A stretch of 64,000 nucleotides of DNA from Trichinella spiralis. Its lineage: Eukaryota. This document shows positions 16,692 to 34,061 of the stretch, piece by piece; position 1 is the stretch's first letter, and each line of letters opens with the position of its first letter. The stretch spans positions 4,965,081 to 5,029,080 of the forward strand of contig NW_003526943.1 in NCBI RefSeq assembly GCF_000181795.1, in the 5' to 3' direction. A program made the translations under genes and the position numbers. The notes below the pieces were generated by a model, which had not been told where the DNA came from, searched no databases, and saw nothing but the letters and a program-made list of their open reading frames with translations.

Positions 16692-18280
16692 ATTGCAAAC
16701 TGTGCCATCAGGCACAGGACTTGGCAAATGTTTGCCATCGAATTCATCAAAAATTTCCAAGACTTGTGCATCGTCTTGCTAAAAAAATTTACAATTAACG
16801 CAAAGTACAGAAACTGAAACGCAAAGCATTTGGAAAAGCACTGAGGATAATTCTAATAAATGCATTATAAAATATTACAAATCAAAAACTCTCTATGTCG
16901 GCCACACATGCAATTCATTTTTATAAAATTTGCTGTAAAAATAAGAGAAACGCAGCAACCTTATTTTTTAGTTGCAACTTTGTGATATGTATGATGACAG
17001 AAAGACAACTGTCAGTGCAATAATTATAAAAGGATAAAAATGCAAAAGTTACAGATGAGAAAGATTATAAAATAGCTATAAAATGGACGCACAGAATTTG
17101 TTTAATTGAGATGTAAAATAGCTGAACAGTAACTATCTGAAACTAAAATAACCATAACATTTGTACGATGATTTTACCTCTTTTTGAAATATTGTTTGAC
17201 TTTATTGAAAATGAACAAATATTGTCATTATATTTTCTTGGAATCAAATATTGCTCTACTGAAAGTTTATTTGCGTTCATAAAATGAAAATATTTTTTGC
17301 TAATAATTATTGAGCATTTCAATTTTTCAATGGGGATATATTTAAACTTTTCTATTTATGAAATGAAATAATTTAATTAAGTTTTTTGAAGCAATTTTAT
17401 TGCTTATAATCTAAAACTTTTTCCAGTGCATAATATTACTTTTTAACTTCAAATGATTCTAAACTGCATATAAATGATAAATCTATATGATTATAAAATA
17501 CACCTTGTAATCATTAATCAATCAGTAATAATCTGTGATCGAGTTAAAAAAATTGCTGCAATTGCTTTTACTATTGTTGATTATAACATTATTAAGAGAA
17601 AGTGCGCAATACTCTATTTTAAAGTTATATTTTGTTGGTAAACTGAAATTAAATTAAATTTAAATAAGCTTTTTATTTAAATTTTTCAGTGATCTAATAT
17701 TGCAAGTAGTAATATTCTATAATTCTGAAGAAAAGAAAAAATTTTAGAAAAAGAAAAACAACTAAGTAGTTTATGTTCTATGTTCAAAATTAAAGAAATT
17801 ACCAAATCACATAATGAAGCCGACACTAAGAAAGCAGATAAAATCCACGCTATACTTTTAAACGCCATCTGATGATAACTGAATTAACATCTTTTGAATT
17901 TGTCTTTATATAATAAGTAATTAATTGAAACATTGCTGTTTGTTTACGTCATGTATTTACAATATGCATTTTATTAAATATAATTCACGAAGCATTTCCT
18001 TGACAAATTGTTTTTATTATGAGAAAACATTGTACTGCTACAGTTGAATAAATTCAAATACATGATAAATTTTAAGGATGCTTTACGCTTTTTGAAAAAT
18101 ATTTGCATCTAGACAATATGAAATATAAAAAAAACAGAAATTGACTACGCCATATCTCTTTTTGATGACTAAAATTATATTGTATTGCCATTTGTCAATA
18201 TACAATATTGAAGTATGCTTAATTTAAGTACGAAGCATGACTTTCTTTTGTTGGACAATCTGGTATTTTAGTTCATTTTA
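16692..18280 (+). repeat. Left arm of a large inverted repeat
   Basis: Reverse complement of about 22750-24340. The ORF track shows near-identical peptides at 17686-17868 (-) and 23171-23353 (+). Confidence 0.9.
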
Positions 18281-19949
18281 AAATTCATTTTATTTAAAAG
18301 GTAAAATAATTAGCCATGAAAAATATTTAAATTAAATGAAAATTCTTTTTAATTTCTTACCCAAAAAAATTTCACCTGTAGTTATAACAACTGTTGTACT
18401 GAAATTACATTACTAACAGTAGAAATGCTCGTCCTGTTTAAAATTGCTTTTTTTGACTTTACTTTAAAGCAGTATTTGCTCAAAATTAAGTGTACGTAAT
18501 TTTAGATTTGAATTTTTGAATGCACTTTTCAGTTTTAATATTTCATAAACATTAATAACTTGTGTTGATAAAATTACAACCATGAACATATAAATTTGCA
18601 AACTCAAGCATTTAAGTAGAATTATAAATGTATCAATATAGATGAAAATATAATAAAATATGAAAAATAAAAAAACGTACAATTGTTAAATAATTTTTTC
18701 GTAAATTTTTTGAAAAATTCAACTGATGAAATGAAATCTTTTTCTGATTCATTATAGCTATTTACCATTGCATTTTTAAATTAAAAGGGCATTGAAAGTA
18801 CTGCTTAATTGTACAATCATATCACAAATAAAAATTCATTATTTGTAAGTGCGTAAAAACTTTGCTGTTTAATTGGAAAATCAGCCAAGATGTTACTAAA
18901 GATATGAAAGAAGGATAAACTTAAATATTTTTCTAAAGTTCTTTTAAACATTTCATCAGACATTCACAAACGGTGTTATATATAGAGGACAACATTGTGA
19001 TTATGCAGTTGAAAAATGTACTCATTCTGGCCTTTTAACTTCACTTCTAATTGGACAGAGAACGCAGAGATGCAACGCAACCATTATTGTTTTTGGTCAG
19101 CGTTTCCATTCCGCTTTCAATCAGTATTGTGGCAGTGTGGCTGTTTATCATCATTTTTACTTCGTAGCTAGTGCGCTTGGCATTACAAAGATTTTATTAC
19201 ACTGAATAAAAGCAAAAACCCAGTTAGGAACAAAACTAATAAAATTGAATCAAATAGACAGGCTTCATAAGCAGGCACGTTACACATGATATCCAAAATA
19301 AATGTCCATCAGTTCAAAATTCAGTGCGCCATTTATTATGATGATTTGCTCATAATTCATCAGTTCTGCTTAAAATTATACATATAAGTAAACATAAAAC
19401 TAAACATTGAAAAGAGATGGAAAGGTAAATAACATTAAACAAATAGTTGGAAATCACCAAGGATTCATAATTAAATTATGGCACTTTAGTAAGGATGCAA
19501 TAAAACATGAACTCTTGCTGCACAAAATATTTCAAAAAGCAGTTTTCTTGCTTTAACTTCAAAAACTAGATATGAACATTGCTTCATCGTCTGGAAAATG
19601 TACATATATTCGTTTATATAGTTAAGGTTTTTTATTCACAACAAATAAACAGCAGTTTCTTGCTTATTCTAAATCAAAATGTAGAATAAAGCGGCCATTA
19701 TTAATGTACTTCCACTTTTTCACCTTCAGCTTTTCTTTGAAGAGCTTAGCACTAAAAAGCTCGCAGACAGCTATGCCAGGATTTTTTAACGTTAATTTTG
19801 TTGAATTTTTTGCCAATAAAAGGCTGTAAAATTATCGAAATTGAAAATGCTATGATACCATCAAATACAGCATTTTTCGTACTATCCAATAAAACAAATT
19901 TCATAAAAATTGAACATAGTTCCAGCTTTTTACACGTGTTTTTCTAAAC

Positions 19950-20239: not shown

Positions 20240-20870
20240 TTTATCATTCATTGAAGTTTTGTTTTTTAATGCATTATTTGTGGTGAAGTTTAACTCTTTA
20301 GTGATCATCATTTTCAATAATAATCTTTATCATTATTCTATATTTTATTGTACTAAAGTGACGTTATACCTAATGCGATAATAATAATTCAGAAAAAACA
20401 ACAAAGTGATTTTGGGATGATCCAATTCGGTCTCACTTTTCAACCCATTTTATTATTGGTCGTTGACTGCGCTATTTTATTGGGCCGTGATTTCGTTGTC
20501 TTATTGATTTTCCTTGTCTAATTGCTCATTCATTCAAACCTTTCACTTGTGATTATCAGTAATATTTTTTCATTTCATTGATTCAGATATTTTATTTAGG
20601 ATTATGTAATTTTAATAGCATTGACGTAACATTAGTAGTGAAAATTTTTATTATTCGAAAATTATATTGTCTGTTTGAAGTTTCGTCATTCATTGAAATT
20701 TTGTTTATTCAAATATATTATTTGTGGTGAAGTTTATACTTCTTCATGATCAGCATTCTCGAAAATAATTTTTATCATTCTATATTTTATTGTAAAAAAG
20801 TGACGTCATATCAAATGCAATAGTAATAATTCAAGAAAAACAATACAAAAAATAAGTTAAATAGTGATTT
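20240..20870. repeat. Diverged ~170 bp direct repeat (about 20240-20413 and 20685-20870)
   Basis: Both copies share cattcattgaa...ttatttgtggtgaagttta...ttctatattttattgta...aaagtgacgt...taataattca. Confidence 0.7.
20414..20560. mobile_element. Fragment of the MULE-type TIR family seen complete at 33774-34061
   Basis: tcggtctcactttt...attggtcgttgactgcgctattttattgggccgtga...tccttgtctaattgctcattcattcaaac is the reverse complement of sequence in 33850-34060 and 25220-25351. Confidence 0.65.
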
Positions 20871-22749: not shown

Positions 22750-24340
22750 TTAAAATCAAAGTAAAGCACCAGATTGCCCAGGAAAAGAAAGTTATGCTGC
22801 GTACTTAAATTAAACACACTTCAATATTGTATATTGACAAATAGCAATACGATATAATTTTAGTCATCAAAAAGAAATAGAGAGAAGTCAGTTTGTGTTA
22901 TTTTTAATCTTTCATATTGTTTAGATGCAAATATTTTCAGAAACGCATGAAGCATCCTTAAAATTTATCTTGTATTTGCATTTATTCAACTGCAGCACTG
23001 TAATGTTTTCTCATAATAAAAATAATCAGAATAACTCAAGGAAATGTTTTACGAATTATATTTAATAAAGTGCATAATGTAAATACATGACATAAACAAA
23101 CAACAGTGTTTCAATTAATTATACATCATATAAAGACAAATTCAAAAGATGTTATTTCAGTTATCATCAGATGGCGTTTAATAGTATAGCGTGGATTTTA
23201 TCTAATTTTTTAGTGTCGGCTTCATTATGTGATTTGGTAATTTCTTTAATTTTGAACATAGAACATAAACTACTTAGTTGTTTTTCTTTTTCTAAAATTT
23301 TTTCTTTTCTTCAGAATTATAGAATATTACTACTTGCAATATTAGATCACTGAAAAATTTAAATAAAAAGCTTATTTAAATTTAGTTTAATTTCAGTTTA
23401 CCAACAAAATATAACTTTAAAATAGAGTATTGCGTACATTCCCTTAATAATGTTATAATGAACAATAGTAAAAGCAATTGCAGCAATTTTTTAACTCGAT
23501 CACAGATTATTACTGATTGATTAATGATTGCAAAGTGTATTTTATAATCATATACATTTATCATTTATATGCAGTTTAGAATCATTTGAGGTAAAAAGTA
23601 ATATTATGCACTGGAAAAAGTTTTAGATTATAAGCAATAAAATTGCTTCAAAAAACTTAATTAAATTATTTCATTTCATAAATAGAAAAGTTTAAATATA
23701 TCCCCATTGAAAAATTGAAATGCTCAATAATTATTAGCAAAAAATATTTTCATTTTATGAACGCAAATAAACTTTCAGTAGAGCAATATTTGATTCCAAG
23801 AAAATATAATGACAATATTTGTTCATTTTCAATAAAGTCAAACAATATTTCAAAAAGAGGTAAAATCATCGTACAAATGTTATGGTTATTTTAGTTTCAG
23901 ATAGTTACTGTTCAGCTATTTTACATCTCAATTAAACAAATTCTGTGCGTCCATTTTATAGCTATTTTATAATCTTTCTCATCTGTAACTTTTGCATTTT
24001 TATCCTTTTATAATTATTGCACTGACAGTTGTCTTTCTGTCATCATACATATCACAAAGTTGCAACTAAAAAATAAGGTTGCTGCGTTTCTCTTATTTTT
24101 ACAGCAAATTTTATAAAAATGAATTGCATGTGTGGCCGACATAGAGAGTTTTTGATTTGTAATATTTTATAAGGCATTTATTAGAATTATCCTCAGTGCT
24201 TTTCCAAATGCTTGCGTTTCAGTTTTCTGTACTTTGCGTAATTGTAAATTTTTTTAGCAGACGATGCACAGTCTGAAATTTTGATGATCGATGGCAACAT
24301 TGCCAGTCTGTGCCTGATGCCAGAGCAATTTTTCCAATTC
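22750..24340 (-). repeat. Right arm of the large inverted repeat
   Basis: Reverse complement of 16692-18280; ends at the 24342-24940 N gap. Confidence 0.9.
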
Positions 24341-25219: not shown

Positions 25220-25351
25220 CACAGCTAATCTCAAGGAAAGATTTGAATCAATGAGCAGCAAGGAAAACCAATATGACAACGACTTGACGACCCAATAAAA
25301 TAGCGCGATCAACGACCAATAAGTGAAAAGTGGGACCGGTCTGGACTATCC
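25220..25351. mobile_element. MULE-type TIR fragment (same family as 33774-34061)
   Basis: tttgaatcaatgagca...aaggaaaaccaatatgacaac...aataaaatagcgcg...gaccaat...gaaaagtgggaccg matches the right part of the 33774-34061 element. Confidence 0.65.
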
Positions 25352-27099: not shown

Positions 27100-29553
27100 A
27101 TCAGCGGTTTCCAAGCAGTCAGCAGTAATCTGGACCTGTTCAGAGAGCAATTCCAAGATGGGCTAACTGTGAAAGAGCACCTGAATGCAGTCACTCTTCA
27201 TTTGAATAAGTTGAAGTTGAAGTAAATAAGCTTAGTGAATCATTCTGCGTCAATGCGCCAGTAGCAGAAATGTTGTCTCTGCGTCACCCAAACGAAACGA
27301 TCACAAATCATTTAAGATACTCAATGATGTCGATTCGACAACAATACTTGGAAAAGGCACTTCAGTGAGTATGTGAAATTACTCTGTACTTGATGATCGA
27401 CTGCATCACTAAGACCACAAATGCTGTAAAAGATTTGCAGTGCATTTCCAGCGACGTGAACGGTTGTGACTTCGAACTTGCAACGATGTGACTGTTCCAA
27501 GTGATATTTCAGCGCTTCCCTCCAATGTCACGTTGAACTCATTGACTTAGTGAAGCAGAGCAGTGAAATCCGCCCTATGGAGCGTTTTGAGCAGTTGCTC
27601 CACTTCTAATGGAATATTTTGATGAATCTGGTAGATGAGAAAGCTTCTCAGAATGGTGCAAACAGGAAAATGGATGTTTGATTTGGTGATTCAGATGGCA
27701 GGTGTAGTTATGCGATACTGAAAGTGCTATTGGTAACGGGAAAAATGTCAGCGGACTGCAGAATACGATGAAACTACAACTGGGCAAGTATGAATAGATG
27801 TCTGACATTGACATTGACAAAGAGCCTCACGAGGCAAAGAGCGTTGAATAGCTGGCTAAAAATTCTGACTCATGCTGCCGACCAGTCAAAACAATTAGAT
27901 TTAGAGAAGTACTCCAAGAAGTGTTATCTGTGAAAGAGCAACTGAATACGGTCACTGTTCATTTGCATCCAGTGAATCTGCTTTGCGAATGGTTATCTTG
28001 CACTGGGCAGATGGTGGAAGAGGATTCTGAATATCAAACATAGAAAACAGTTAGCAATTATTTACGATTATTGCATTCGATTAAGTCGATTTGATTGCAA
28101 GATTTGGAAAAAAGCACTTCAGAGAGTCTGTGACATACAAAGGCAAGTAGTTCTCATCATTGATTGTATCGCCAAGTGCAGGAACGCTTTACAGTACTTG
28201 CAGCGTATTTAGAGGGATATAAAAAACGTAGATGTACAATTGGAAATATTGAAAGTCATTTGATCTACCAGTGAATATCTAGTTGAAATGAGTGTCTCTC
28301 TTACACAGGTCAATGAATCACGTTAAATAGCTTCATGAGGCTGTTCTTTGACTATGCGGTGGATACCATAGACTGAGGGCTGAAGCAACATGAGGAAGTA
28401 CACCTTCAGGTGCCTAAATGTTAATGAAAAACGAGCATGCGGCAATGTTAAACAAGTGTTGAAAAATTCTGACTCGCGCTGACGGGTCGAAGCTATTGAA
28501 TTTGGTTCCATTTTTCCACCAACTGGAACACCTTTATCACAGATACGACGAACTAGAAATAGAATTTGGAAAGACTGACTTGCATTTGTTGCCGCCTGTA
28601 TTGCCCATGTTGAACAGCGCATCTTAACGCTAAAGACAATGGTCATCTGGAGTGAACCACCTCCACCAATTTGAGAAAGCACGGTTGAAGAGCCACCTGA
28701 AAGCGACAGCGCTGAAGATGTGCTAATCACACCGAGAACTTTCAACTTCGAATCTTGAACTGAACAATCCCTGTGGACAGAAAGCGTGCAGTCAAAAGCG
28801 ATTGGCTTCATCACCTCAGGTCAGAGTGTGGCTGTGGCCGTTGATCCAGGAAAATCCTGATTCACGTTGCACGTAAAACCGACGATTGCATTTGAAGACC
28901 AAGAATCTGTGCAACTAGTTATGATAAATGAATTGGAATTAGACCATTTCGGCAAAGCGTCCGGGATGACATTGCGCAATCACATCTTGGCCGTGTGTTC
29001 GTACACCTTTGGTCAGATTGTACTGCTTGAACCAGAAACTTTGAAAAAATTGACAGTACTGAATTGTGATGGTTGTACATTATTTGATTTGGACATCATG
29101 TCCAACGGAGATATTGTCAGTGTAGATGCAAAGCATGAAAAAGTTATCAAAATGAGATCAACCGGAGAACGTTTAGCTGAACGGCACGTCCATGGAGCAA
29201 CCAGAGGTGTTTCGGTCTGCATGGACGACCGCATTTATGTACTAGTTGAAGGAGGCCCGTATATACATTTGCTCGACTCCTTCCTCAACAATTTAGGAAC
29301 GATTAGTTTTTATAAAAATCAACCCTCAAAATTGGACTGTAGATATTCGTTGTGCATTGAAAATTTACTCCATATTAGCTGCGACGATGCTGTTTACTTG
29401 CTTGACGTGCAAAATGGAAACGTCACTGCAATTCAACCAACGGAAAACTCCGTTTACTGATTGGAAGTTGGTGTAGATGCAAGCGACAACGTGTCTGCTG
29501 CAAAATGAGGTTCAAGCTCAGTGGATGTATTCGCAAAGGATGGTCAGTTCTGA
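27100..29553 (+). pseudogene. Intronless decayed gene: duplicated helical segment plus C-terminal NHL-like beta-propeller (TRIM-NHL-like)
   Basis: ORF 28867-29460 has propeller-like repeats (FDLDIMSNGDIVSVD, RGVSVCMDDRIYV). Reading past the stops gives GVDASDNV...SSVDVFAKDGQF. Upstream, about 27130-27490 and 27890-28250 are diverged copies of each other with many stops. Confidence 0.55.
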
Positions 29554-31045
29554 AACAGTCTATAACAAGCAACGTAAAAACCCCAATTAGAAAGTTTATA
29601 GTTTACAGATGTCTAAATTTTAATTCAATCTTTTCATAATAAAATGTTTCTTTCTGAACTTTTATATACTGACTTTGATAACAAAACATGTTTATTAAAA
29701 GAAATTCATGTTATTTCCGTGACAAAAATTTAATACAATAATTTGTTGTATGAAATTTATTTATTTTCACAGCAATGAAGAATTATGAAATTTCAGTAAT
29801 TTTACTGATATCTTTTCGTAAATCCAAATTTGAAATTTAGGTTTTGTTGAAAAAAAAATTGAAAAATATTTTAAAATCTTTGTCATGCACGACAGATCTA
29901 TTCAGTTAATAAAATTGAATTCTACATAGGTAATCCAATGTATTAAAAACGTATAGTTAAAAGTAACCACATCCATAAATTTATTACTGTAAGCTGAATA
30001 GTCCGTTTTGTTTGCTATGCAAGTAAATTTATTAAAAGTCAAATGACAAATTATAACTTTTTAACAGTTAGTCGGCAATTCAGCAAAACCGTTCTCAATC
30101 ACTGTTTAAAGTGAAAATTCATTATATTCACTCATTACGTTCATAATATTTATATATTCAATAGTAATTATTTATATTTAAGTAAAAAGCTGCATGTGAA
30201 TCTCAAACATCTAAAAATCATGTGCAATTAGCATTAGAAAAAATCCTACGTAGAAGAATTTTAATTCAATTATCAGTTCTGTTGAGACTAAGCAATTAAT
30301 TAATAATCTCTCTTTGAGAGTACTCACATCAATAAAAGTAATATTTGAATCTCTCATAGTATTTGTGATTTCAGCTAGTTCAGCACTCTCTGCAATAGCT
30401 ACACCTGTTATGTAGTTATGTTCCAGAGCGACAACACTATTAAATAATAAGAGAATAAATAATTCAAAGTTTCATTTTCATAATTACACAATTATGCAAA
30501 CATCATTTCTGAAAAATGATTTTGATGTGCACACAAGAAAGCCAAGTCAATCTACAGCTGAAATAAAATTAGAACTAATCATTGACGTTTCTTCAAAATT
30601 ATGAAGCAGCAGCTGCAAAAATAACGTGATACAATTAAGAAAGAATTGTATAATAGCTGATTTAAATATAATTTATATAAAAATGTGAATTTGAAAGTTA
30701 TATCAATTTCTGCTATATCTAATGCTTATTTATGTTGCTTTCATTGTGAAATGTTTCTTAAATTTTTTTAAAATTCAACATTTGGTTGTCTTTTTATTGA
30801 ATAACTGTTTATGTTCATTATGCCTAATATGCTTTTGCAACCGTATAGCATTAAGAAAAGTTTTGATCGTGAATTCTGTTTACTTTATTTTCAAGTACCA
30901 CAAATCAAAATTAGCTTACTATGACATTATTAAACTAGTCAAAGATAGATATGGTGATAAAACATATTTTAACAAACATTTCAGGTTAAAAGAAGAAAAT
31001 AAATGAAAAGTAAAAAGACTTTTTATTATAGTAAAGTGAATATAA

Positions 31046-31138
31046 AGGAATTCTTTATGATTTCCCAGTCAAAAATTCTGTACAACAAATATTTGTTGTA
31101 CACATTTCATTTACCTTCAAACAAATTGAAAGGTATTT
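31046..31138 (-). ncRNA. Spliced-leader (SL) RNA gene, leader AAATACCTTTCAATTTGTTTGAAG
   Basis: 24-nt leader (31138-31115) then GTAAAT donor. TACCTT-CAA pairs with TTGAAGGTA (stem I). Perfect palindrome TGTACAACAAAT/ATTTGTTGTACA (stem II). Sm site AATTTTTG at 31077-31070. GGGAA..TTCCT stem III. The leader resembles, from memory, a published T. spiralis SL; this needs verifying. Confidence 0.85.
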
Positions 31139-31190
31139 GAAATATTTTATAATGAAATCCATCTATTCTAATAGAAACTTGATTTTTAAA

Positions 31191-31200
31191 TTGGGTTTTG
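31191..31200 (-). promoter_or_regulatory. Putative snRNA-type proximal sequence element (CAAAACCCAA)
   Basis: The same motif lies about 60 nt upstream of each SL-type gene (also at 33611 and 46827), and occurs at 31651 (+) and 45568-45577 (-). Confidence 0.55.
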
Positions 31201-31712
31201 TAACTGAATCCAGTCTTATAAAAACACCATTTTAATTAGTAAAATTCTCAGTATTGTTATTTATTCATTGCTTAATTTATTCAAAACTGATATAGTTATT
31301 TTTGAAATAAAATCAAATATTATGACAGTGCAGATTACATCCGCTCGATTTTAGTTACGCATAATTTTAAGATGATATTTGAAAATCATATCTATTTAAT
31401 TAGAATGCAATTTGTGTAATGCTCGTGGATTTTTTCAGTATCTGTACTAAACTTTTAAATAAAGAAATATCTGTCAAAACCCAATTATTTTTATTGTGAA
31501 CAAGTTATGGGTAAGGAATGATAAGAATCAGTAATCAGTAAATGTTGCGTGTATAATAAAAAAATTATGCTAGATCTGATTACCTCAACAAAATCCGCCT
31601 ACTGTTTCTCAGTGAATTTCATTGGTTGCCGCTCTGATGCACTGCATAGCAAAACCCAATTTATTACTCGGCTTTCCCTGGTTGTTATAATATCGCTTGG
31701 AATTGCGCTCGT

Positions 31713-31830
31713 GATTGCTCAATTCTTATTGTTGTTGTTTTTGTTGAACTTCTTACTCAATTAGTGTTGTTATACTATGTTAGTATTTTTGTTATAGACC
31801 ATTAGGGTCTGGGAAACCTTAGGGTCTCCC
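31713..31830 (+). ncRNA. Candidate Sm-site small RNA lacking a splice donor (SL-related or SmY-like)
   Basis: AAAACCCAA at 31651, about 62 nt upstream. 5' end GATTGCTCAATT resembles the 46891 leader. TATTTTTG Sm-like site, then hairpins AGACC-ATTAG-GGTCT and GGGAAACCT-T-AGGGTCTCCC. Confidence 0.4.
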
Positions 31831-33667
31831 GTATGAGTATTACTGTATGTATCTTAGGTTCATAATTTTTTCTCAATTAAAGTAAAAGACTAATTCTTAG
31901 TCTTTAATAAATTATGTGATTTTTAGTAGTTCAAGCTGTTTAACTCCCAAATGTCTAAGGTTTATTTGTTTTAATGCATTTTAGAAATGTTGTTATTTTT
32001 TGCGTTGTCATGTCAGTACTGAGTCATTTTACTTTACCTTTATGTTAATCATTTTAGGAATCTTCTTTTTTACGTACTGGAGTGTTTTGATTGCTGATCA
32101 GCCCAGCTTCTTAAAAATGTTGTCGGTCCACCTCACTGGATATATTTATTGTATTTTCAACACAGATGTTGATTTTTTTCCATTTTCAAGCCAATCATGC
32201 TTTTGATAATTGAAACAACCCAGACTTTTTACAGAACGCCATGCATGTTGGCTTAGAAGTAACTACTGCATCATAGTAATTTCCACAAGAAAACAACTGG
32301 CGAACACCGCAGCACGCTGTAGCACGTTCACAACTGCTACTACAGTTGCTGAGTTCATCGTCCTTAGATTAGCCACAAAATGCTATTAAATAGCTTGTAG
32401 TTTTTCTTCGTTCTGCTGGTTGTGTTTACGCCTGAGAATTCGAATGGTTTTTTAATATCTACATTCTCGACGCCAGATTTGGTTCGATTATTCTATTTAA
32501 TAATTTCAGTGTTATTTTTTCTCATCTCAGCACGTAGCATTATCATCATGCACTGACAATAGCAGAATGACGCCTTTGTTGCTCCGTTTCACATTGTTAG
32601 TTACCAGTCAAAACAGTAAATAGATGCGCCAGGCTTTTGACCGTTGGCTATAATCATCTTAGTTCAATGGCAGATATGAATTTTCTGAACCAATCGAACA
32701 ACAGTAATTTTGCTGGCCAACGAATTTTCAGCTTTTTTTCCTTGCAAGTTATCGAGGCCACAGTACAGTATGTACCTGAGTGCCCTTACAGACAGTATGC
32801 CCAATTTTTGAATTTGTTATTATTACATCACCATTGTCGAAGTTAGCTACGCTCTCGATTGCTGTCTCTCTCTTCCTCTCTCTTGACTTCATTTCGAATC
32901 ACCGTCATCCACGACACAAGTAAACAACCTGTTGCGTTCCTTCCTTTTCCACACCATGGTAAAAATTTATTGATTACAATTCCCTGTTCTGGCTTGCTGT
33001 CAAAGTATATTTCACCAGCGCTAATGGGCAGGGCATCTCACAGCACCACAATGCCGTTATTTCACCTCTTCTGTCCTGAAAAATCAGTAAGCGGAAGAAG
33101 ACACTTCAACAGCGCCTGTTTGGCAGGTACAAACTATTGTTTCCAAATATGGTATCATTTGTTTTGTTTCTTATGATGGCATGGCACACTGCACGGTCTA
33201 TGTTAAGGCTTAACACTAAATACCACAGGGGAAAGTAGAACATGGCAAGGCCGGAAGGATATCGAAGGAGCAAATCGTCTTGTGGAGAGTTTTACAATAG
33301 TCAAATTCGGCCTAAAGTTTCATCGCGTTTTCTCACTGGTCGTTGAACGCGTTATCTTATTGGACCTTTGTACCGTATTGCTGTGTAGCTTCTAGCTTTT
33401 CTGAACCATTCTTAAACATTCCTAATTCCTTTGTTCTCATATGATATAATGCTTTGGTGAATATGGATGATGTTGCAGGACTGGCATAAACGGCCAAATT
33501 CTTGTAATGCAAATTGCTGTGTGTTGCCAGGTATGTTCCAACAAAGCTTTAACAAAAAATTTATATATTGTTGATTTTATTTTAAATAATGTTACTAAAT
33601 TTCTGTTTGGAAACCCAATTTTTAATTTATTTGATATAAGAAGGTTAAGATTTTGATGAATTGTGTG

Positions 33668-33762
33668 TACCTTGTTATTTTCCTTGAAGGTGAATTGTTA
33701 CATATATGCAACAAAAATTTGTTGCATTAAATTTTTCCCTTGCAAATCATTGGGATTTCCTT
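33668..33762 (+). ncRNA. Divergent SL RNA gene or pseudogene, leader TACCTTGTTATTTTCCTTGAAG
   Basis: AAACCCAA at 33611. 22-nt leader ending GAAG, then GTGAAT donor at 33690. Stem II ATGCAACAAA-AA-TTTGTTGCAT. The Sm-like site AAATTTTTCC lacks the final G. Weak stem III AAATC..GATTT. Confidence 0.6.
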
Positions 33763-33773
33763 TATTATAATCT

Positions 33774-34061
33774 GGGTTTGGTACTACTCGGTCCCGCTTT
33801 TCTCTCATTGGTCTTTACCCACGCTATTTTATTGGATCGTCAAATCTTAATCACAACTGAAGAGTTTGAATCAATGAGCAATTAGACAAGGAAAACCAAT
33901 ACGACAAAGATTTCACTGAGCAATTAGACAAAGAAAACCATTACGACAAAGACTTCACGGCCAAATAAAATGAAAACCAATACAACAAAGATTTGACGGT
34001 CTAATAAAATAGCGTGGGCAAAGACCAATGAGAGAAAAGCGGGACCGAGTAAAACCACCCC
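33774..34061. mobile_element. Complete Mutator-like (MULE) MITE with ~75 bp TIRs and 9 bp TSD
   Basis: Termini GGGTTTGGTACTACTCGGTCCCGCTTTTCTCTCATTGGTCTTT... and ...AAAGACCAATGAGAGAAAAGCGGGACCGAGTAAAACCACCCC. Flanked by TTATAATCT at 33765-33773 and 34062-34070. Internal short tandem repeats (gaaaaccaatacgacaaaga). Confidence 0.85.

Follow-up and report, generated by a model that had tools for sequence, protein, structure and literature searches.

A candidate decayed SL4-type spliced-leader RNA gene of Trichinella spiralis that probably still starts a long RNA

Sequence comparison and transcript contigs from a 64,000-nt stretch of the Trichinella spiralis genome (contig NW_003526943.1, positions 4,965,081 to 5,029,080; hereafter the window, with coordinates counted from its first letter) point to what is likely a decayed spliced-leader (SL) RNA gene of the SL4 type, whose promoter probably remains active and gives rise to a long RNA that is trans-spliced and probably non-coding. 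In public contigs, the front part of this candidate is spliced to a downstream exon that also receives a normal leader; it therefore probably begins a longer RNA and is not a new small RNA. The preliminary description of the locus had offered two possibilities: an undescribed Sm-class RNA, such as a clade I analogue of the SmY RNAs, or a remodelled SL gene. The latter option is backed by the paralogous position of the candidate and by a collinear promoter, start, and terminal hairpin.

The candidate adjoins the SL RNA gene Tsp-SL5 (31042-31138, minus strand), a divergent neighbour whose leader is identical to the published row (PMC7986045 supplement). The sequence bears out the divergent placement at about 575 nt that had been described, with the candidate 575 nt from position 31138. 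A block at 31185-31566 is paralogous to 45562-46329 (blastn; four pieces, 76-89% identical), and the candidate therefore occupies the place that Tsp-SL4 (46889-46985, plus strand; its leader matches the upper-case letters of the row in the same supplement exactly) holds in the other copy. Further copies of the duplicated block, which carries divergent SL genes, are present in contigs of runs guessed to be DNA; in one of them, a leader of the SL15 type takes the place of SL5, as seen from a loose end at 31121.

Two additional SL-like copies lie in the same region. One (29695-29788, minus strand; motif AAAACCTAA at 29837-29845) resembles SL5 and has the second stem-loop, the Sm site, and the third hairpin; it is very AT-rich and lacks a donor, with GAAAAT in place of the GAAGGT found elsewhere. 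Judged by these features, it is a closer fit to a putative donor-less, SL-derived Sm RNA than the candidate itself. The other (33667-33765, plus strand; motif GAAACCCAA at 33610) is 72% like SL5 and has an intact donor and an Sm run that is not closed by G. The end of its leader is absent among the T. spiralis rows searched in the SLIDR supplement, and one contig of run X17 crosses both its promoter and its body.

The exact motif AAAACCCAA is located at 31651-31659 on the plus strand. Judging from its position, this SL-gene upstream motif is presumably a promoter element of the snRNA type, and it lies at the distance usual for a functional SL RNA gene. A matrix built from the promoters of four SL-type genes ranks 31646 highest in the window outside the training set (17.2 bits, next 13.6 bits). 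Exact copies of the motif are enriched in the window (5 versus 1.31 ± 1.17 expected, a number reached in 1 of 100 simulations); copies with one mismatch are not (39 versus 37.5 expected), and the copy at 31476, although exact, lacks an SL-like body. An interspersed repeat (31571-31641) abuts the motif on its upstream side, where contigs from other loci align with loose ends. This repeat and another at 32470-33420 occur in many contigs of the runs guessed to be DNA and RNA; the section at 33300-33370 has a very high copy number and is related to 20421-20486, 25260-25338, and 33779-34057. Elsewhere in the window, a long inverted duplication (16782-18282 and 22750-24255) has arms that are 85-98% complementary and several kilobases apart, and a 199-aa open frame (28861-29460, plus strand) resembles a beta-propeller exon by eye but has no Pfam match.

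Transcription of the candidate would start at an SL4-like sequence (31711-31720, plus strand) that is identical to 46889-46898 in 8 of 10 positions, a likeness found 53 times in 125,512 window positions. The preliminary description had correctly reported that GATTGCTCAATT follows the motif by 62 nt, at 31713, but had set the SL4 leader start at 46891. Because the published SL4 leader begins at 46889, 61 nt after its motif, the matching start of the candidate is 31711. The spacing between AAAACCCAA and this start is 60 nt, compared with 61 nt in both SL4 and SL5.

The body of the candidate contains all elements that had been described, namely a GU-rich tract followed by TATTTTTG and two hairpins, the latter predicted by folding. 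The tract is a low-complexity (TTG)n stretch (31727-31747, plus strand) that takes the place where the alignment with SL4 would put the leader donor GAAG/GT (the slash marks the splice site). The donor AAG/GT, which is seen in all 15 Tsp leaders listed in the SLIDR supplement, is absent from 31711-31835, and in this the candidate differs from a functional SL RNA, whose short leader at the 5′ end stops at a splice donor. The putative Sm-like site ATTTTTG (31785-31791, plus strand), which is TATTTTTG with the A at 31785, is recognizable from sequence only; it is preceded by T, where SL4 and SL5 have a purine. It is followed on the same strand by hairpin 1 (31796-31810, 5 bp in the predicted fold) and hairpin 2 (31811-31830, 7 bp with an A.C mismatch), the probable homologue of the third stem-loop of SL4. 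Since 31798-31810 is the same as 31816-31827 except for a 1-nt indel, hairpin 1 apparently arose locally, by tandem duplication of the core of hairpin 2; TRF scored no tandem repeat at the hairpins. The unit TTAGGG occurs twice, and a telomerase template was considered and rejected, as each occurrence stands alone as one unit and is accounted for by the local duplication.

The predicted fold differs from that of a functional SL RNA, which has three stem-loops and an Sm site that separates the second from the third. No stable 5′ stem-loop is predicted for the first 78 nt (z -0.68; 43 of 200 shuffles as good), and the entire body folds with a z of -1.7 (10 of 200 shuffles as good) versus -3.3 for SL4 and -4.1 for SL5. 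An Sm-like run with stable hairpins behind it is not rare: among the 230 AT4-6G sites in the window, 11 are followed by a 44-mer with a folding energy of -10 kcal/mol or lower, and the candidate ranks third behind two stronger sites.

An origin of the candidate from an SL gene is likely, as judged from blocks that have kept their order. Positions 31810-31834 are identical to the terminal hairpin of SL4 (46960-46984) in 18 of 25 positions, the sole match of this quality among 125,392 positions. Compared with SL4, hairpin 2 has five identical pairs, one double-sided change, one pair gained, and one broken; the A.C mismatch replaces a G-C pair that is present in both SL4 and hairpin 1. When the 39 sites that match the motif with at most one mismatch are scored for start and hairpin together, the candidate (8 + 18 = 26) comes directly after SL4, and the next site reaches 20. 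A 25-nt matrix from three SL genes, the register of which was set by hand, places the candidate second among 126,194 positions (26.0 bits, next 14.6 bits). Removal of one 16-nt repeat unit gives the same spacing between Sm site and hairpin as in SL5.

Searches with complete units gave a different picture. The alignment of the whole unit to SL4 is not significant, its local score being reached by 118 of 300 shuffles for 31591-31900 and by 17 of 300 for the body. With SL4 as query, the candidate is outside the top 8 of 4,111 segments; in the reverse search, SL4 ranks sixth. A covariance model of four SL genes assigns the candidate 15.3 bits (E 3.4), compared with 76-100 bits for the training genes, and a model of Sm site and hairpin alone misses it among 27 hits down to E 10, which is expected if a 16-nt insertion separates the two elements. 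Because whole-gene alignments and covariance models fail to recognize the candidate, its SL ancestry rests on the collinear blocks, and the matching SL4 blocks were chosen after the alignment had been viewed.

Transcript evidence comes from 7 of 24 listed public runs, all examined as contigs. None of the runs is on record as RNA; the type of each was guessed, which assigned five of the examined runs to RNA and two to DNA. The transcript contigs stem from three studies (X18; X20; X16 and X17). In one contig of X18, position 31778 is spliced to 32058 on the plus strand, with 279 nt skipped between GT and AG (31779-32057). The contig covers 31743-31778 of a first exon that would begin at 31711 (36 nt on this side of the joint; depth 6.6). 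In contigs of both runs guessed to be DNA, 31779-32057 is unbroken and the joint is absent. The donor is situated six bases before the Sm-like site, and the Sm-like site and both hairpins are therefore part of an intron in the X18 form. Of the 14 GTs in the body, that at 31779 most resembles a donor (6 of 8 positions of the consensus). Hence, the candidate had been rightly called donor-less with respect to the leader donor AAG/GT, but a GT within its body is used in one contig.

The acceptor TTTTAG/G (32056-32058, plus strand) serves both cis splicing, in the X18 contig, and SL1 trans-splicing: in one contig of the second study (X20), the last 12 nt of Tsp-SL1 are joined at 32058, and a contig of X19 ends exactly at this position. 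Two repeat-laden contigs of the third study (X16, from 31725 to beyond 32300; X17, 31727-33197), both from runs guessed to be RNA, are unspliced and pass through the hairpins. They would represent read-through on the plus strand; being unstranded, they may also come from the 3′ terminus of an RNA on the other strand, given the minus-strand AATAAG at 31730. The left contig ends, 31725 and 31727 in one study and 31743 in another, do not amount even to a weak indication of where transcription begins. Contigs cover the body of the SL5 gene in none of the five runs guessed to be RNA, which was not used as evidence. The downstream RNA is probably non-coding, because it is rich in multi-copy DNA, its longest ATG frames comprise only 59 and 50 aa, and none of nine nearby frames matched Pfam. 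An extra A at 32143, present in all seven runs that list or cover the site, is likely an error or a private allele of the window.

If the candidate is a decayed SL4-type gene, its history would have involved the duplication of a divergent pair of SL genes, the loss of the leader donor in the candidate copy through overwriting by the (TTG)n tract, the erosion of the middle stem-loop, and the partial duplication of the terminal hairpin. Directed by the snRNA-type motif, RNA polymerase II would begin transcription near 31711 and, in at least some rounds, run on past the hairpins. The first 347 nt of the transcript would form an outron that is replaced by SL1 at 32058. Less often, the GT at 31779 would be used in cis, whereby the 68-nt first exon is kept and the old Sm site and hairpins are removed. 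A stable short RNA is probably not produced.

Variation within the species provides limited information on constraint. A second haplotype, represented by X11 and X14 and common to X18, has 15 differing sites in each contig of 1.0-1.2 kb. Among the substitutions listed, 4 of 15 (1.8 expected, p 0.10) and 3 of 15 (1.5 expected, p 0.18) fall into the 125-nt body, which shows no sign of overall constraint in a comparison of little power. The variant in hairpin 1 converts C-G to U.G and keeps the pairing, and hairpin 2 has no substitution among those listed between the haplotypes. The double-sided change and the absence of listed substitutions in hairpin 2, together with the G.U pair kept in hairpin 1, fit some constraint. 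The candidate itself appears to be single-copy: in both runs guessed to be DNA, the depth over 31710-31899 equals that of the main contig alone, and contig depth gave no indication of a second copy at 80% likeness. The block upstream of the candidate is multi-copy in the contigs of these runs. Runs labelled as organism B carry the same haplotype as those of organism A.

The alternative that survives best, albeit an unlikely one, is that an SL gene gave rise to a separate RNA of some 125 nt that is capped and bound by Sm proteins, lacks a leader donor, and plays an SmY-like role in trans-splicing; the long contigs would then reflect leak-through favoured by libraries of the poly(A) type. The promoter motif, start, Sm-like site, and terminal hairpin have been kept in order, hairpin 2 has gained one pair and changed another on both sides relative to SL4, no substitution is listed in hairpin 2, and the one in hairpin 1 keeps the pairing. 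SmY is essential in Caenorhabditis elegans yet reported only in clades III-V in the accessible part of PMC11229312, and SNA-3 is said, in the excerpt available from PMC9303266, to be conserved throughout nematodes. The two stem-loops of SmY flank its Sm site, and the loop of the first is conserved (PMC11229312, in the part available). By contrast, both stable hairpins of the candidate are located 3′ of the Sm-like site, its 5′ part folds no better than shuffled sequence, and an Rfam search down to E 10 yielded no SmY match. Substitutions are not depleted in the body (at low power), hairpin 2 contains a mismatch, the Sm-like site is located in an intron that is used, and a second copy was not seen. 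Pairing with the SL RNAs, which had been suggested as a check, is at the level of shuffled sequence (97, 32, and 51 of 100 shuffles as good for SL4, SL5, and the copy at 33667). As far as the same excerpt allows a comparison, the candidate resembles SmY in its Sm-type site and the lack of a leader donor; a link to trans-splicing is suggested by context only. The SmY-like RNA of the preliminary description gained no support. Its most specific form is improbable: an SL gene copy would have turned into an Sm snRNA that lacks a leader donor, carries its 3′ hairpin in duplicate, is made as a discrete capped RNA from the divergent SL promoter, and is the clade I counterpart of SmY, with the long contigs as read-through.

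Equally improbable is a chance resemblance without SL ancestry, in which AT-rich DNA simply holds an ordinary promoter or the end of a transcript. The failure of whole-unit alignments and both covariance models agrees with this explanation, as do the abundance of AT4-6G sites, two of which have stronger downstream folds, the repeat abutting the motif, and the minus-strand AATAAG near the contig ends. It does not account for three collinear blocks at the right distances, two of which have frequencies of 53 in 125,512 and 1 in 125,392, at a position paralogous to that of SL4. A very unlikely alternative is an SL RNA of unusual form, the 68-nt leader of which is donated in trans at 31778/31779, directly before the Sm site. 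The best donor-like GT is indeed used and is followed by the Sm-like site and the hairpins, but the sole joint seen leads to an acceptor of the same locus 279 nt downstream, no loose end at 31778 is among those listed, and the exon end is absent from the T. spiralis SLIDR candidates searched (rows 15-16 and those after SL127 by string comparison), although the SLIDR pattern would exclude such spacing.

That the candidate is a highly diverged spliceosomal or histone-processing snRNA (U4atac or U7) is hardly credible: the snRNA-type motif and Sm-like site would fit, and the 2008 screen, in the part available, lists U11, U12, and U6atac but not U4atac among the minor snRNAs of T. spiralis (PMC2396436), but two hairpins follow the Sm-like site, the last of them SL4-like, and no Rfam snRNA family matches down to E 10. 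The latter result upholds the preliminary description, in which the candidate was not recognized as a known snRNA. Covariance matches and hallmark pairing motifs of U1, U2, U4, U5, U11, U12, and U4atac were not found, the hallmarks of U1, U2, U5, U7, U11, U12, and U4atac being absent from the body; the Sm pattern of U7 is likewise missing, and U7 has a single 3′ hairpin instead of two. No hits at the gathering score were obtained in the window, and hits down to E 10 around the candidate comprised only unrelated bacterial families. Rfam overlooks the genuine genes of SL4 and SL5 as well, so this blank says nothing about SL-type RNAs. The literature search found no paper linking Trichinella with Lsm10.

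Like the SL genes of T. spiralis, and particularly Tsp-SL4 (PMC7986045), the candidate has the motif at 60-61 nt, a start with 8 of 10 identical positions, an Sm-like site, and a terminal hairpin with 18 of 25 identical positions; like Tsp-SL4, it lies opposite an SL5-type gene in a paralogous position. Unlike Tsp-SL4, it has no GAAG/GT donor and no stable first or second stem-loop, carries an extra hairpin, and is about 125 nt rather than 97 nt long, and contigs run through it. According to the accessible text of PMC7986045, many of 29 additional SL copies in T. spiralis may be non-functional. The candidate resembles these copies, as far as they are described there, in being a degenerate copy within an SL cluster and differs from them in that, by contig evidence, the remnant is spliced into a downstream exon.

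In C. elegans without Integrator, snRNA and SL genes are read through into long chimeric RNAs, as reported in the available parts of PMC6390993 and bioRxiv 10.64898/2026.04.18.719358. The chimeric sn-mRNAs described there (PMC6390993) are like the candidate in that a long RNA begins in an snRNA or SL locus and extends beyond it. They arise by Integrator loss from an intact SL gene, whereas the gene in T. spiralis is probably decayed and, in the contigs from public runs, is used with a new donor in cis and with an acceptor for SL1; the treatments of the samples are unrecorded.

No printed description of the candidate locus was found in a search that did not extend to the gene lists of Pettitt 2008 and 2014. 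In its most likely reading, the locus is a warning that a promoter motif, an Sm-like run, and hairpins do not make an snRNA. SmY RNAs, which C. elegans needs for trans-splicing, are unreported in clade I; if a short RNA exists and is conserved, an SL-derived substitute for SmY would suggest how such RNAs arise. As a decayed SL4-type gene, the candidate would show on a modest scale how what is left of an SL gene can be put to new use as the beginning and outron of a long RNA.
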